Origin: an uncultured Bacilli bacterium
GTDB taxonomy: Bacteria; Bacillota_I; Bacilli_A; RF39; UBA660
DNA length: 64,000 nucleotides
Reading direction: 5' to 3'
Assembly: GCA_947625505.1 (NCBI GenBank)
Contig: CANQON010000005.1
Span: 819-64,818, forward strand
The notes beneath the pieces were generated by a model. That model had not been told where the DNA came from. It did no database searches and saw nothing but the letters and a program-made list of their open reading frames with translations. A program made the translations under genes and the position numbers. Positions 4,054-39,118 of the stretch are shown here, piece by piece. Each line of letters starts with the position of its first letter. The first letter of the stretch is position 1.

Positions 4054-4162
4054 TCTATCACATCTATTATCTAACTATTATAAGTATAACATTTATTAAG
4101 CATCTTGTAAATAAAGGTTAAAAATATGTTAAAATATAAATAGTAATAAGGAAAGTGATAAA

Positions 4163-5392
4163 ATGAATATGAATAATGATCCTTTAGCTATAAAAATGCG
4201 TCCTTTAAAAATAAAAGATGTTATTGGGCAAAAACATCTTTTAGGTAAAGATAAAATACTTTATAATTTAGTTAAAAATAAGAAATTATTTTCGATGATA
4301 TTATATGGTAAACCTGGTATAGGTAAAACTAGTATTGCTATAGCAATTATTAATGAATTAGGATTAAAATATCGCATCTTAAACGCAACTATAAATAATA
4401 AAAAAGACTTTGACATTGTTGTAGAAGAAGCTAAAATGTATAAAGGATTAGTTGTTATAATGGATGAAATACATCGTTTAAATAAAGATAAGCAAGATTT
4501 ATTACTTCCATATCTCGAAAGTGGATTAATAACTTTAATAGGTATGACAACATCTAATCCTTATCATAAAATTAATCCTGCTATTAGAAGTAGATGTCAA
4601 ATATTTGAGTTAAAAGAACTAACTAATGATGATATCATAGATGGTATAAAAAAAGCTTGTAAGAGTGAATATTTACCTAATATTAAGATAGATAATAAAA
4701 CAATGAAGATGATTGCTAATATATCGGGAGGAGACTTACGAGCTGCCTATAACTTACTTGAAGTAGCATACTATTCTACAAGTGACTTTCATATAACAGA
4801 AGAAGTAATTAAAAATATTAATAGTAAGCCTATATTCTTTCATGACAAGAATGAAGATGGCCATTATGATGTCATTAGTGCTTTTCAAAAAAGTATTAGA
4901 GGCTCTGATGTTAATGCTTCATTATATTATTTAGCTCGTTTAATCGAAGCAGAAGACTTAGATATCATATATCGACGTATGAGTGTTATTGCCTATGAAG
5001 ATATCGGACTTGCTAATCCTAGTATGGGGCCTAGAGTTGATGCCTGTATTAATACTTGTGAAAGACTAGGATTACCAGAAGCTAGAATACCTCTTGCTGT
5101 TATGGTAATAGATTTAGCATTATCTCCTAAATCTAATAGTGCTATTATGGCTCTTGATGCAGCCTTAGATGATATACATAATGGTTCAAGTGGAAACGTA
5201 CCAGATCATATTAAAACAACAGCCTTTGGCTATAAATATCCTCATGATTATCCTCATGCCTATGTAAAGCAACAATATTTACCTGATCAAATTAAAGATC
5301 ATCGCTATTATAAACCTAAAAATACAAGTAAATATGAAACTAATTTAAAAAATATTTATGATAATATTAATAGATTAAATGAAAAAGAGTAG
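4163..5392 (+). CDS. rarA: replication-associated recombination protein A (AAA+ ATPase RarA/MgsA)
   Basis: Walker A GKPGIGKTS, Walker B VIMDEIHR, and an MgsA C-terminal region (HYDVISAFQKSIRGSD..YYLARL). Confidence 0.9.
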   Translation: MNMNNDPLAIKMRPLKIKDVIGQKHLLGKDKILYNLVKNKKLFSMILYGKPGIGKTSIAIAIINELGLKYRILNATINNKKDFDIVVEEAKMYKGLVVIMDEIHRLNKDKQDLLLPYLESGLITLIGMTTSNPYHKINPAIRSRCQIFELKELTNDDIIDGIKKACKSEYLPNIKIDNKTMKMIANISGGDLRAAYNLLEVAYYSTSDFHITEEVIKNINSKPIFFHDKNEDGHYDVISAFQKSIRGSDVNASLYYLARLIEAEDLDIIYRRMSVIAYEDIGLANPSMGPRVDACINTCERLGLPEARIPLAVMVIDLALSPKSNSAIMALDAALDDIHNGSSGNVPDHIKTTAFGYKYPHDYPHAYVKQQYLPDQIKDHRYYKPKNTSKYETNLKNIYDNINRLNEKE

Positions 5393-34934: not shown

Positions 34935-36179
34935 TTAACTAGCTACTTTTTCTGTATCTGTTTTTAATTCATATGTCTCCATAAAAGTTCTTAAAGTCTC
35001 ACGCATTCTTTCATATCCTAAATAACGCATATTATTAATAATAAAATTATCATAAGGCCAAATACGTTTTGACTTAGCTACATGATTAGCTCCAAAATCC
35101 ATTATGGCATATTCTTGTTCAAAGTCTTTAAATTCTTTACCTTCAGCATGTCTTAAAAATTCTTCACAAGCATCAATAAGTGATCCTCCATTTTGAAGTA
35201 TCCAGTTTTCAATACCTACGCCACCTAAACCACCATTTTGGCGATCTCCTTCTAGAATACCTCGAGCAGGTTTATAACTACCAGCCATTTTTAACATATC
35301 TTTAGCATACATAATATTAGCTAATACTAAACGATATTTTTGAGGATCTTGAGCCCTCATATTCTCTAATCTTTCTTTAATTGCATCCTCTGTTGAAAGA
35401 TAATTATCTTTTTGTGGTGTTAATGAAAAATCAATATCAAGAGGTTTTTCAAGTTCAGGAATAGTAACATCAACTAATCTTACTTTATAAGTAGAAGTCT
35501 TTGTAATATGTCCTTCAGCTTGTAAATCATTTTCTAATATTTGTTTTACTTTCCAAGTTAATTCAGGATTAAAACGAATTGTAAAATCAAAATCCCATTT
35601 TTGACTACCATCTAATGATGGAACATTAGTATATCGATCAGTAGATCCTGCTTCAACTAATTCAATATCCCCTCCTGAATTACATCCAATAGTAACAGTA
35701 AATCCATATTTACTTAATTGCCTAATAATTTCTTGATAAACTTTATCACGATAGAAATCAACTTGTCTTATATTTTCATCTATTTTACTTAAATACTTAT
35801 CTAAACCTGGAAAATATAAATTTGGTGAAAAAGTATAATCACCAGCTCCATATTCTTTTAAACCACCCATTCTTACACGAAATAAGCGAAATTCTTCTTC
35901 TGTAAATAATAATTGATTAGTTTCAGAATTATAAATAGGTATATATCTATTATTCATAGCTTCAAGTAATTTTATATCATTTACATTCATTGATTCTGTT
36001 AAATAAGGTGCTTTTCTATATGCTCTTAAATTACTAGGTACTACAATAATTGCTTCCATAGGGCTATTAACATAATAAAAAGGAACATTAGAAGTAGACT
36101 CTATTTTTTCTCCATGTAAAAATCTTTCCATTGTTTCTAAATCCCTTATTCCTAATCCCATTGTATCCATAAATATCAT
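34935..36179 (-). CDS. Pol-beta superfamily nucleotidyltransferase-like protein
   Basis: VEAGSTDRYTNVPSLDGSQKWDFDFTIRF (G-S ... D-x-D), a third acidic site PLDIDFSL, and a later helical motif GGLGGVGIENWILQNGGS resembling the GFSGY..ELL helix of class I CCA-adding/PAP-type enzymes. The start codon is uncertain among M1, M4 and M7. Confidence 0.5.
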   Translation of the reverse strand: MIFMDTMGLGIRDLETMERFLHGEKIESTSNVPFYYVNSPMEAIIVVPSNLRAYRKAPYLTESMNVNDIKLLEAMNNRYIPIYNSETNQLLFTEEEFRLFRVRMGGLKEYGAGDYTFSPNLYFPGLDKYLSKIDENIRQVDFYRDKVYQEIIRQLSKYGFTVTIGCNSGGDIELVEAGSTDRYTNVPSLDGSQKWDFDFTIRFNPELTWKVKQILENDLQAEGHITKTSTYKVRLVDVTIPELEKPLDIDFSLTPQKDNYLSTEDAIKERLENMRAQDPQKYRLVLANIMYAKDMLKMAGSYKPARGILEGDRQNGGLGGVGIENWILQNGGSLIDACEEFLRHAEGKEFKDFEQEYAIMDFGANHVAKSKRIWPYDNFIINNMRYLGYERMRETLRTFMETYELKTDTEKVAS

Positions 36180-36246
36180 CTCTATTCTCTAATATAATTA
36201 TACCTAACTCATTAATTATGTCAACTATAATAGTATGCCATATCTT

Positions 36247-37248
36247 TTATTTATTAATAACCTCCAATATTGCTCCACCATGTGTTTTAACTTTAATAGG
36301 TGTCAAAACATTAGAGTTTTTTAATTCTTCCATTGTTTTAGGCCTTACAATAACTAATTTATCTAGTTCATCATTAGTAAATACATAATAAGCAGGCATA
36401 TTCATTTCTTTAGATCTTTCTTTTCTAAAATTAATCAATCTTTCTTTTAAATCATCATTAATAGATATATTATTATTATTATAACAATACTTATTTTTAT
36501 AATATGTATAATAGTCAATAGATTCATTGAATGACAAGTTCAAATAAGAATTAGCAATTTCTTCCATACTCTTTTTTGTTTCTAAAATTTCATTAGAAGC
36601 TCTATGGTTTAAATCATATTCAATTTGTCTTATTAATGCATCAGCACGTAATATTTTATATTTCATATCTTTAGGTGCTCTTGTAGTATTTAAAATAGTA
36701 TCTTGATTAGCAGCTACAACTAAAACTTTTCGGTAATAATTAAACTTATTAGAACTTAATAATTTAGTTACTTTAGATGACTGACTTTCCCATATTTTTC
36801 TTACTACTTCTCTTTGTGCTTCTACTTGTCTTAAAGGTGAATACATTCCTTTCTTAATCTTTTTACCATTAATAGAAAATTCTCTTATAAAATCTCCTTT
36901 ATCTGTTACTGTAATATTTCCAACTAGATTTTTACATTCAATATAATATATATAAACAGGTGTTATAACTATATAATCAATCTGAGCAGTTAAATCATCA
37001 TATTTAAGTTTTATATCTCTTAATACATACATTCCTATGTGAGCTTTTTTTAATTGATAAGCTATTTCATTTTCTCCATCTAAACCTTTTTTAATTATAA
37101 ATAATTCACTTAATAATTCTTCATTATTAGGAAATTCATTATTTAATCTTATTAAGGCATCATATCTATCTTGTAAATCACTATTTTCTTTTATAAATAT
37201 AGTATCTTTAAATCTTAAAGAATCAATTACATTATCTATTAATCTCAT
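36247..37248 (-). CDS. NERD domain protein with C-terminal HRDC-like domain
   Basis: NERD pattern (GLDGENEIAYQL..., DYIVITPVYIYYIECKN). The C-terminal 70 aa are HRDC-like (PAYYVFTNDELDKLV..PKTMEELKN). Confidence 0.65.
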   Translation of the reverse strand: MRLIDNVIDSLRFKDTIFIKENSDLQDRYDALIRLNNEFPNNEELLSELFIIKKGLDGENEIAYQLKKAHIGMYVLRDIKLKYDDLTAQIDYIVITPVYIYYIECKNLVGNITVTDKGDFIREFSINGKKIKKGMYSPLRQVEAQREVVRKIWESQSSKVTKLLSSNKFNYYRKVLVVAANQDTILNTTRAPKDMKYKILRADALIRQIEYDLNHRASNEILETKKSMEEIANSYLNLSFNESIDYYTYYKNKYCYNNNNISINDDLKERLINFRKERSKEMNMPAYYVFTNDELDKLVIVRPKTMEELKNSNVLTPIKVKTHGGAILEVINK

Positions 37249-37275
37249 TATTTCACCTTCATATTTTTTTAATTA

Positions 37276-37458
37276 TTAATTCCACCATTTACTAATAATA
37301 TTTATATTTTGTTTAAAATCATTAAAATTTAATAGTTCCCAATATTTAACATTATACTTACTTAAAATATCAATAAATTCATAAGCTTCATATTCCAAAT
37401 CTCCTATACCATATTTACTAGGTAAAGAAAATATTGGTAATAAAATTCCTATATCCAT
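37276..37458 (-). pseudogene. 5' stub of a 4-alpha-glucanotransferase (malQ, GH77) gene
   Basis: MDIGILLPIFSLPSKYGIGDLEYEAYEFIDILSKYNVKYWELL matches the conserved GH77 N-terminus (GILLHxxSLPSxYGIGDxGxxAYxFxDFL...WQxLPL). It stops after about 60 codons, whereas full-length enzymes are about 500 aa. Confidence 0.6.
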
Positions 37459-37543
37459 ATTATATTTCACCATCTTAATTTTATCATAAAAATAATTAAA
37501 AACTAAGTATAACTTAGTCTTTAACTTATAATTATTATTTAAT

Positions 37544-37945
37544 TTATTTTTTATCATTAGTCCATACAAGCATTATACCTATAATCGGATACAATCCTAG
37601 TATTGGCCCAAACATACTAAACAAGTTATCTTCATTAACAAAACTGCCAATCATAAACAAGGCAAAACTAATCACACCTAATACAATTGATATTCTTACT
37701 TTTTTTCTAAATGCATCTTCTTTTACTTTTTTTTCAAATTCATAATTATCTATTTTTTCTCTCATATCTTGTTCATGCTTTGATTTTCGACTTTTTATTT
37801 TAGCATTTTCTACTCTTTCAATAGTAGTTGCTTCATCATCAATAAGCATTTTATTGCCACAATAATTGCAATAAACCTCATTTAATTCAGAATTTACTTT
37901 TAAATTAGCTCCACAATTATTACATTTTAATTCAATTAACTTCAT
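37544..37945 (-). CDS. zinc-ribbon membrane protein
   Basis: CNNCGANL...CNYCGNKM zinc ribbon, a charged helix, and two C-terminal TM segments. AAAGAGGAG RBS. Confidence 0.65.
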   Translation of the reverse strand: MKLIELKCNNCGANLKVNSELNEVYCNYCGNKMLIDDEATTIERVENAKIKSRKSKHEQDMREKIDNYEFEKKVKEDAFRKKVRISIVLGVISFALFMIGSFVNEDNLFSMFGPILGLYPIIGIMLVWTNDKK

Positions 37946-38122: not shown

Positions 38123-38160
38123 ATTGACTTAAGGCTTCGTAAGTTTCTTAAATACTAATC
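38123..38160 (-). ncRNA. conserved bulged hairpin motif, copy 2 (3' of abi)
   Basis: Minus strand: GATTAGTATTTAAG-AAACTTACGAAGC-CTTAAGTCAAT. Same architecture as 39081-39118, with compensatory stem changes. Confidence 0.4.
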
Positions 38161-38189
38161 AATAATATTATATGAATTATCATCATAAT

Positions 38190-39059
38190 TTATACATTAG
38201 GATATCCCATAATTTTTAAAACTATTCTAGCATCTATTGATTTAATAGACTTATTTAATTTATCAAACTCTTTAGTAATCAAAGTTATTAAGTCATTGTA
38301 ATCTTGTTCATTTAAGAATTTTTCCATACTTCTAATTAACATATATAAATTAGTTGAATTGTTATTTATTTTATATGTGTTATCTATTAAGCTAAAAGTC
38401 ATAAAAAATTTACTATGAAAAGAAAATAATCTATCAGAATGAGCACAAATATTTCTTGCTAATGTCATATTAATAAGAATTTGTTTTAATAATTTTGGTG
38501 ATACATTAAATTTTTTAGCTATTTCATTTCTATCTGATTGTTTTAATAATCCATACCATCTACTTATTTGTCCAAAAGATAAGATTTTAATTGCAACAAA
38601 TGGAGGTATAAAGCCATAGGTTTGATCATAATGCGTAATAGCTGGATGCTTGCCTTTATTTTTATCTATTTCTGTTATGATAGAATCAATTACATCATTT
38701 ATATCATCTTCATTTGCTAATTCATCAAAATTTGTTTTGTTAAGATAATCTTTAATCCCATAATTCTTAGCAATTATATTTCCCATCATACCCCTTATTT
38801 TTAATTCAAATTCTAAAGCATACTTTAAAAATATAACTCTTATATTTTTATCAAAATCATATAAAGAATATATTTCATTAAAATGAACATTTTCAAAATA
38901 TGTATTATCATCTTTTTTAAATACATATTTATATGTGTTAATAACAGAATAATATGAATAATTATCTATAATATTTAAGGCTCTATTCTCATCATCAATT
39001 ATTACATTTTTATTTTTTAAATGTTCTAATAATTCTTCATTATGTTTATATTCTTTCAT
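38190..39059 (-). CDS. Abi_2 family abortive-infection protein (AbiD/AbiF-like, HEPN)
   Basis: N-terminal pattern ..LNIIDNYSYYSVINTYKY..F..V.F.EIYSLYDFDKNIR and the HEPN R-x4-H motif (LARNICAHSDRLF). Start taken at MKEYKHNEE behind GGGGGAA. Confidence 0.8.
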   Translation of the reverse strand: MKEYKHNEELLEHLKNKNVIIDDENRALNIIDNYSYYSVINTYKYVFKKDDNTYFENVHFNEIYSLYDFDKNIRVIFLKYALEFELKIRGMMGNIIAKNYGIKDYLNKTNFDELANEDDINDVIDSIITEIDKNKGKHPAITHYDQTYGFIPPFVAIKILSFGQISRWYGLLKQSDRNEIAKKFNVSPKLLKQILINMTLARNICAHSDRLFSFHSKFFMTFSLIDNTYKINNNSTNLYMLIRSMEKFLNEQDYNDLITLITKEFDKLNKSIKSIDARIVLKIMGYPNV

Positions 39060-39080
39060 ATAATATTCCCCCATAAAAAA

Positions 39081-39118
39081 ATTGACTCAGGGCTTCATAA
39101 GTTTCCTGAGTACCAATC
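39081..39118 (-). ncRNA. conserved bulged hairpin motif, copy 1 (abi 5' leader, attenuator-like)
   Basis: Minus strand: GATTGGTACTCAGG-AAACTTATGAAGC-CCTGAGTCAAT followed by TTTTTTT. A 7-bp core stem, GU bulge and 4-bp distal stem, lying between the predicted TSS and the RBS. Confidence 0.45.

Follow-up and report, generated by a model that had tools for sequence, protein, structure and literature searches.

In a 64,000-nucleotide stretch of contig CANQON010000005.1 from an uncultured Bacilli bacterium (hereafter, the window), a gene of the Abi_2 family, abi, is flanked on both sides by copies of the same short bulged hairpin. What are these hairpins, and what does a copy on each side mean for the gene between them? 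AbiD/F proteins are widespread anti-phage toxins, and to our knowledge the RNA partner of such a protein has been characterised in two systems only, both with the RNA upstream of the gene. An initial annotation, made from the letters of the window, had proposed that the two copies form a selected RNA structure transcribed with abi, which might be a cofactor, an antitoxin or a site of processing. In this work, we report that the hairpins are genuine RNA elements, conserved and covarying, which lie on both sides of a HEPN-RNase (AbiD/F) defence gene in hundreds of loci from gut bacteria. By analogy with published systems, we consider it probable that the locus is a self-contained AbiD/F toxin/RNA-antitoxin module resembling type III systems, in which the two hairpins would be the cognate protein-binding RNAs.

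The hairpins and the abi gene

Both hairpins lie on the minus strand, hairpin 1 at 39118-39081 upstream of abi and hairpin 2 at 38160-38123 downstream, and they read exactly as the initial annotation had given them. Hairpin 1 (38 nt, GATTGGTACTCAGGAAACTTATGAAGCCCTGAGTCAAT) is composed of a distal 5-bp stem (GAUUG/CAAUU), a GU bulge, a 7-bp core stem (ACUCAGG/CCUGAGU) and a 13-nt loop, AAACUUAUGAAGC, that contains an inner CUU/AAG mini-helix. Hairpin 2 (38 nt, GATTAGTATTTAAGAAACTTACGAAGCCTTAAGTCAAT; loop AAACUUACGAAGC) has the same architecture and loop, with an AU-rich core stem (AUUUAAG/CUUAAGU). Between copy 1 and copy 2, three core pairs differ: C9-G33 becomes U-G, C11-G31 becomes U-A and G13-C29 becomes A-U, that is, two compensatory changes and one G-U pair, all of which keep pairing, as had been noted. 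The GU bulge is likewise kept in both copies; the distal stem is kept less completely than was claimed, since copy 2 contains an A-C mismatch at position 5/35. The T7 tract that had been described after copy 1 is a matter of counting: six T follow CAAT, and the run has seven (39081-39075) if the final base of the hairpin is included.

The abi coding sequence (39059-38190, minus strand) specifies a protein of 289 aa that matches Pfam Abi_2 (PF07751) with 145 bits (cutoff 25.6; E 3e-42) and the PADLOC AbiD entry with E 5e-52, and that is homologous, at low identity, to PbAbiF (PDB 8VZ6; E 4.8e-14 over residues 3-214). The HEPN R-phi-x3-H motif is present as RNICAH, and its residues R202, N203 and H207 are invariant across 18 homologues and align with PbAbiF. 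The start codon is taken to be the ATG at 39059, because the homologues are 288-289 aa long and a ribosome-binding site, GGGGGA, lies at 39072-39067, 7 nt 5' of this ATG (GGAGG or GGGGG is kept in the homologous loci). The ATG of the longest open reading frame, at 39074, falls inside the region of the U-run and ribosome-binding site, and automatic annotation from it adds five spurious residues. The exact protein of the window has no record in the assembly index.

Conservation and covariation

For comparison, 88 homologous abi loci from metagenome-assembled genomes of uncultured gut Bacilli, 'Tenericutes' and Clostridia were combined with the window to give a set of 89, with protein identities of 50-97%. 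The upstream hairpin is present in 87 of the 89 loci and the downstream hairpin in 86, and all genuine copies are in the abi sense. The loci that miss a copy are contig ends, except for one (L077) that is truly without the downstream copy. Thus, the two-sided arrangement, which the initial annotation had regarded as unusual, is actually the rule in this clade.

Structure statistics were obtained from an ungapped alignment of 117 distinct (non-redundant) 45-mers. Among the 819 cells of the 7-bp core stem, a single one is not a pair, and double-sided changes are found in six of the seven core pairs (143 cells); for example, G-C is replaced by A-U in 48 sequences and U-A by C-G in 47. None of 500 shuffles reached the observed covariation score or compensated-cell count, and when the 3' partner was slid by one position in either direction as a register control, pairing fell from 95% to about 50%. 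RNAalifold independently found the same core stem, plus an invariant inner CUU/AAG helix. G-U and U-G pairs are numerous (27 and 20 in the core stem, and over 100 in the distal one), so the structure is on the abi-sense strand, in agreement with the earlier proposal of a selected sense-strand RNA. The 13-nt loop, AAACUUNNGAAGC, which had been called almost invariant from two copies, is so across all 117 hairpins, as is the bulged GU, and this is the pattern expected for protein contacts. It had been suggested that the idea of a selected RNA would fail if homologous loci lacked the motif or varied in a non-compensatory way; in fact, the motif is present and the variation is compensatory.

The motif is also specific to this locus within the window. 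A degenerate 38-nt pattern with at most three mismatches gives two sites only in 64 kb, against none expected from 100 shuffles. With a covariance model built from the relatives, the two hairpins score 66.1 and 59.8 bits (E 1e-14 and 5e-13, respectively), while the score elsewhere in the 64-kb window does not exceed 11.5 bits.

Upstream and downstream copies

The flanks of 80 upstream (UP) copies and 76 non-redundant downstream (DN) copies were compared. In the window, hairpin 1 is preceded by the sigma-70 promoter P1 (39155-39126, minus strand), which consists of a -35 box TTGACT (39155-39150), an 18-nt spacer and a TG-extended -10 box TATACT (39131-39126); it matches the consensus at 10 of 12 positions, and 7 nt separate the end of its -10 box from the hairpin. 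The family has the same signals: TG is found in 69 of the 80 UP promoters and a -35 match of at least 5/6 in 57, and the spacing to the hairpin is fixed. A U-run follows the hairpin in 80/80 UP copies and 0/76 DN copies. The core stem contains three to five G-C pairs in UP copies and one or two in DN copies, and the UP copy is more stable than the DN copy of its own locus in 69 of 73 loci. In the window, hairpin 1 ends 22 nt before the abi ATG. These signals suggest that hairpin 1 and its U-run form an attenuator resembling an intrinsic terminator and, more generally, that the UP copy is a leader small RNA (sRNA) combined with an attenuator.

The surroundings of the DN copies are different. 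A perfect TATAAT is found at -12 to -7 in 57 of the 76 flanks and a 5/6 match in 17 more, at a spacing equal to that of the UP -10 box, and a terminator-like hairpin with a T-run begins 0-8 nt after the copy in all 76. In the window, the TATAAT of the candidate promoter P2 (38172-38167, minus strand) begins 17 nt after the abi stop codon and ends 6 nt before hairpin 2, and an intrinsic terminator, T2 (38121-38086, minus strand; an 11-bp stem-loop at 38121-38094 plus a T-run), follows hairpin 2 after 1 nt. This layout suggests that the DN copy is transcribed independently as an sRNA and, in addition, forms part of the 3' end of the abi mRNA. The claim that the motif is transcribed with abi can be refined in that the downstream copy probably also has a promoter of its own.

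Core stems of UP copies are more similar to those of UP copies at other loci (0.79) than to those of their own DN copies (0.63), and therefore the two classes predate the radiation of the family; as judged from their sequences, UP and DN copies are differentiated paralogues. For the distal stem the relation is the reverse, with a similarity of 0.94 within a locus versus 0.81, which is consistent with either a shared locus-specific recognition element or concerted evolution.

A human-faecal phage contig (L091, MT835668.1) encodes an Abi_2 protein with 30% identity to that of the window. Its gene is flanked on both sides, at 195-300 and 1290-1392, by near-identical units of TTGACA, a hairpin (loop AAACUUGCGAUGC) and a separate terminator, so the two-sided layout reaches a distant clade. 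Flanking repeats were also looked for in Streptococcus and Enterococcus phage Abi_2 loci and none were found; the layout is therefore clade-specific.

Note that the window also contains a perfect 13-nt complementarity between the abi start region (39055-39067) and the 3' untranslated region (38164-38176), which is common to the window and one related locus (L012). Long-range pairing of these regions was considered as a cause of the conserved TATAAT and was rejected, as the duplex energy of own pairs in the family (-5.7) is close to those of shuffled (-5.4) and cross-locus (-5.5) pairs. The complementarity is not kept across the family and is probably incidental.

Comparison with known systems

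Published AbiF proteins are described as type III-like toxins in which the HEPN site is blocked by a non-coding RNA (ncRNA), placed upstream in all these accounts (PMC12373285; PMC12737573; PMC13064643). The dimer of the phage-encoded C. difficile AbiF binds RCd22, an RNA consisting of two tandem abiF motifs and then a terminator (PMC12373285). For PbAbiF, two ncRNA molecules, separate from each other, are reported to be bound per dimer and to block its HEPN site, and the system is classed as a type III toxin-antitoxin (PMC12737573; PMC12373285).

The initial annotation had raised a possible link to the AbiF ncRNA. One half of this link stands: published AbiF systems are indeed RNA-antitoxin systems (PMC12373285; PMC12737573). 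The other half does not, as the motif is not that of the Rfam abiF family, RF03085. Hairpin 1 does have the placement of RF03085, upstream of an abiF-family gene and in the same orientation. Nevertheless, cmscan gave no credible match of the hairpins to RF03085 or other Rfam families, in 3 kb of sequence and in 150-nt slices at E<=10, and RF03085 had no match in 20 homologous loci. As a positive control, RCd22 was rebuilt from the primers listed in PMC12373285; phage phiC2 contains a stretch with 100% identity to it, on which RF03085 reaches 37.6 bits (gathering threshold, 37 bits). Reciprocally, the hairpin covariance model (R1) finds nothing in phiC2. Identity with RF03085 was rejected, since the model misses the hairpins while the phiC2 control exceeds the threshold. 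The consensus of RF03085 combines a 6-bp GC stem with a 1-nt bulge (A), an inner stem of 3 bp and, on the 3' side, a 6-nt internal loop (CAAAUC), whereas the present hairpin has a 5-bp distal stem, the GU bulge, the 7-bp stem and the 13-nt loop; the resemblance between the two stops at a general design with an outer stem, a 5' strand rich in A and a small inner helix. The main text of Weinberg 2017 does not describe the abiF motif. The hairpin motif and its split, two-sided layout are absent from Rfam and from the AbiF literature consulted, which treats the PbAbiF system of Zilberzwige-Tal et al. (Cell 2025) through PMC12737573 and PMC12373285.

Apart from the motif itself, the C. difficile system is close in several respects. 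The two Abi_2/AbiD-F HEPN proteins are of similar size and have the same catalytic positions, R202 and H207; the ncRNA begins at the transcription start site of the abi promoter, and a terminator between the RNA and the toxin gene yields abundant short RNA and rare read-through, both of which are predicted from sequence signals here; two hairpin motifs are present per locus, matching the protein homodimer; and it is the structure of the stem, rather than its sequence, that counts. The arrangement is different: in C. difficile, a single upstream RNA of 98-132 nt carries the two motifs in tandem and has a separate terminator, whereas in the window one motif lies upstream and serves as its own terminator, and the other lies downstream with a -10 box and terminator of its own. 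The Prevotellaceae pair PbAbiF/AbiFr (PDB 8VZ6) shares with the present locus a homologous protein, and its dimer is reported to bind two separate ncRNAs; its ncRNA is described as upstream only, and the protein identity to the Abi of the window is low.

Like ToxIN, CptIN and TenpIN, the locus combines an RNase with a candidate cis-encoded RNA antitoxin, uses a terminator that would set the RNA:toxin ratio, and is compact and mobile. In particular, sequence signals place an RNA gene and a toxin gene in one unit with a terminator between them (P1, hairpin 1 with its U-run, and abi). The classical type III systems differ in their ToxN/CptN fold and in their antitoxin, a tandem-repeat array processed by the toxin. 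No such array is present in the window, where single hairpin units, one per side, are split across the gene; AbiF systems likewise depart from the tandem-array feature.

Hairpins outside abi loci

A search that started from a degenerate pattern of the motif, independently of abi, yielded 3 viral loci and at least 120 metagenome loci, with 170 credible hairpins among the matches listed. Of these, 62 are upstream of abi, 51 are downstream, 28 are at contig edges and 29 are orphans, defined as having at least 1 kb on each side without an abi fragment nearby. Among these matches, 113 of the 142 resolvable hairpins (80%) are thus adjacent to abi, and, together with the counts in the homologous loci, this bears out the proposed link between motif and gene. 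Extra copies in five loci (L010, L009, L018, L024 and L067) mark tandem or neighbouring abi cassettes of different subclades; L010, for example, contains two complete cassettes in a row (70-2575), 70% and 94% identical to that of the window.

A promoter of their own and a U-run or terminator accompany the orphan hairpins, for example in L107 (1655-1870) and likewise in L104, L193, L205, L120 and others; a subclass of the orphans has GAGAUGUGCC...GGUCUUUUU. Of the three viral contigs with a hairpin (L093-L095), two show a clear phage context: the copy of L094 follows an endolysin gene and that of L095 follows terminase, portal and structural genes. Orphan hairpins could be antitoxin-only genes or RNA decoys against AbiD/F, and the phage-borne ones suggest counter-defence by RNA mimicry. 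A precedent is reportedly provided by the phage pseudo-ToxI of Blower et al. (2012), which is said to mimic the ToxI antitoxin; the orphans in L094 and L095 are similarly antitoxin-like hairpins in phage contigs, although any neutralisation of an Abi by them is hypothetical and the viral contigs concerned number only three.

Mobility of the cassette

The abi cassette lies beside ppdK. A 66-nt direct repeat, 63/66 identical between its copies, brackets a 1214-bp insertion that holds the whole cassette. Copy 1 (39270-39205, minus strand; attL-like) comprises the last 20 nt of ppdK and the ppdK terminator hairpin, and is followed on the minus strand by a 46-nt spacer between this terminator and P1; copy 2 (38056-37991, minus strand; attR-like) closes the insertion. 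The insertion junctions lie outside the hairpins, by 46 nt and about 65 nt. Contigs from sibling samples provide further filled sites (L217, L218 and L220), and an empty site is found in L219 (Logan ERR10663786), where ppdK is followed by a single 66-nt copy and then by the zinc-ribbon gene. By three diagnostic mismatches, this single copy is a hybrid of copy 1 on its left and copy 2 on its right, which is the mark that one crossover by a circular element would leave inside the repeat, here between positions 24 and 57 (the terminator hairpin). This implies that a putative circular element without an integrase was integrated in the Campbell manner, with the terminator hairpin as the place of the crossover, and the comparison of filled and empty sites shows that the whole 1.2-kb abi cassette is a mobile insertion. 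A signature of the circular form was sought in L222, a 1207-bp contig with an abi gene 93% identical to that of the window, and no terminal overlap was found.

Between the window and L012, identity is 95% in the cassette (about 39158-38060) and drops to 70% in the neighbouring ppdK genes. Over the genomes compared (L012, L014, L010 and L003-L005), cassette identity is 85-95% with ppdK genes about 70% identical. That the cassette is more alike than the adjacent ppdK indicates horizontal exchange at a ppdK-linked hotspot. In many loci the cassette is next to ppdK, as a rule downstream of it; in L014 it lies upstream, and in L003-L008 other small genes separate the two. ppdK appears to be an insertion hotspot.

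Some of these loci have additional features. A tyrosine recombinase gene is found just upstream of ppdK in L003 and L004. In L012, the 3' end of ppdK is repeated at 4080-4120. Beside the abi cassette, this locus has, at 4185-4879, a promoter, then 2.1 copies of a 51-nt tandem repeat and then a gene for a 160-aa homologue of CptN (PDB 4RMO, E 2e-20) with no Pfam or PADLOC match, a unit that looks like a CptIN-type type III toxin-antitoxin in the same hotspot. At about 5000-5231, the same locus has a third unit of P1 plus hairpin, with a truncated abi (74-aa open reading frame).

Downstream of the cassette in the window, the minus strand at 34935-37945 encodes a 133-aa zinc-ribbon membrane protein with a weak LeoC match, a 93-97-aa open reading frame that is annotated elsewhere as a Glyco_hydro_77 fragment and is possibly a remnant of malQ, a NERD-HRDC protein of 333 aa, and a 414-aa protein without family. 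Together these genes possibly form a defence island. The zinc-ribbon gene is followed by a terminator (about 37500-37530) similar to the arm of the ppdK terminator (AAAGACTAAG...).

Interpretation

The above results show that the hairpins are conserved and covary, on which strand they act as RNA and that they are associated with the gene; they also show the promoter and terminator signals and the homology of the protein. All this fits a toxin/RNA-antitoxin module that would work as follows. The Abi HEPN RNase would be the toxin. Hairpin 1 would be transcribed from the strong P1, beginning at or within 1-2 nt of the transcription start, and its GC-richer stem and U-run would terminate most transcripts to give an abundant sRNA of about 45 nt; limited read-through into abi would amount to attenuation. 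Hairpin 2 would be a second sRNA, of about 75 nt, transcribed from the -10-only promoter inside the abi 3' end and ending at its own terminator, and every full-length abi mRNA would have it at its 3' end as well. On the model of PbAbiF and C. difficile AbiF, two hairpins would keep the Abi homodimer inactive, with the invariant loop and bulge as the features that it recognises; if these short-lived RNAs were transcribed less, as might happen on phage infection, the RNase would be freed. The mechanism is most likely similar to that of the AbiF RNA-antitoxin systems already published; the parts of it that we infer are the binding of the RNAs to the protein, toxicity and its neutralisation, the trigger and the use of P2.

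Several observations weigh against this picture. Function is assigned by homology to systems with a different RNA motif, RF03085 being unmatched here, and the 29 orphans are hairpins that exist without an adjacent toxin. No -35 box and no TG element are found in the DN flanks, so P2 is possibly a weak promoter, and the TATAAT could be an RNA processing signal instead. In the distal 5-bp stem, pairing amounts to 80-90% and one pair covaries, but RNAalifold does not predict this stem. In addition, single-sequence folding is not significant against shuffles (z -1.25 for copy 1 and, more awkwardly, -0.14 for copy 2), and support for the structure consequently comes from the comparative data.

A rival reading is that the hairpins act purely in cis, hairpin 1 as a transcription attenuator and hairpin 2 as a stability or processing element in the 3' untranslated region of the abi mRNA, with no antitoxin in trans. 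The U-run after every UP copy, the terminator after every DN copy and the lack of -35 and TG at P2 would agree with such roles, and RCd22 also acts in cis, by premature termination (PMC12373285). However, a terminator or stabiliser needs no invariant 13-nt loop common to both copies across proteins of 50% identity, orphan copies have their own promoter and terminator without abi, and both flanks of the L091 gene are complete promoter-hairpin-terminator units; we regard a purely cis-acting role as unlikely. The invariant loop and the locus-specific distal stem suggest that a specific ribonucleoprotein is formed, which would also suit activating or guide-like cofactors, similar to CRISPR RNAs (crRNAs), that Abi must bind for its activity or targeting. 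Cas13 is reported to descend from AbiF, and crRNA to have its forerunner in the AbiF ncRNA (PMC12737573), and the sequence upstream of lactococcal AbiF is reported to be essential for its antiphage effect (PMC13064643). Against this, the RNA neutralises toxicity in both characterised AbiF systems, and the hairpins have no variable spacer-like segment, their flanks being promoter, U-run or terminator. A cofactor role in place of an antitoxin role is thus quite unlikely, and the two roles could exist side by side.

The remaining alternatives concern DNA rather than RNA. Because the cassette is a mobile 1.2-kb insertion and the hairpins lie on either side of the gene and, like attC sites, contain extrahelical bases, they might be attC-like recombination sites, folded as single strands, that mobilise the abi cassette. 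This is very improbable: the junctions lie in the 66-bp ppdK-terminator repeat, outside both hairpins, homology blocks with other loci include the promoter and terminator, the loop sequence is conserved, unlike that of attC, and the promoter, U-run and terminator contexts are those of transcription units. An integron-type cassette was rejected, as the crossover deduced from the filled and empty sites is inside the repeat and not at the hairpins. The initial annotation had also named a generic element like repetitive extragenic palindromes (REP) as a competing possibility. The last alternative considered is such an intergenic repeat, or one like miniature inverted-repeat transposable elements (MITE), or else chance similarity. 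The 17% of the listed motif-first hairpins that are not next to abi would speak for it, but two copies in 64 kb against none expected, a position relative to abi that is fixed in about 97% of loci, and strong covariation leave it a negligible chance, and a REP or other dispersed repeat is effectively refuted.

Returning to the toxin/RNA-antitoxin module, it may be combined with the results on mobility and orphan hairpins into a split-antitoxin, integrase-less mobile defence cassette. This combination makes three linked claims, and we offer it as tentative and, taken as a whole, doubtful. Two anciently differentiated sRNAs, one of the attenuator type coupled to transcription of the toxin and one constitutive from a -10-only promoter, would jointly load the Abi dimer, such that the toxin:antitoxin balance reads out host transcription; the 1.2-kb unit would move between genomes as a circle by means of a 66-bp copy of the ppdK terminator; and phages would have captured orphan hairpins as RNA decoys against AbiD/F defence.

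Implications

With more than 250 instances in gut Bacilli and Clostridia, the hairpin represents a second RNA motif class for AbiD/F that is not in Rfam, in a repeat-gene-repeat layout with two differentiated copies. The pair of filled and empty sites at ppdK is a concrete example of cassette movement. The locus may serve as a natural 1.2-kb test module for how many RNAs are bound per AbiF dimer and how the RNA:toxin ratio is set, and the covariance model allows systems that are now annotated as single-gene 'Abi' to be recognised.

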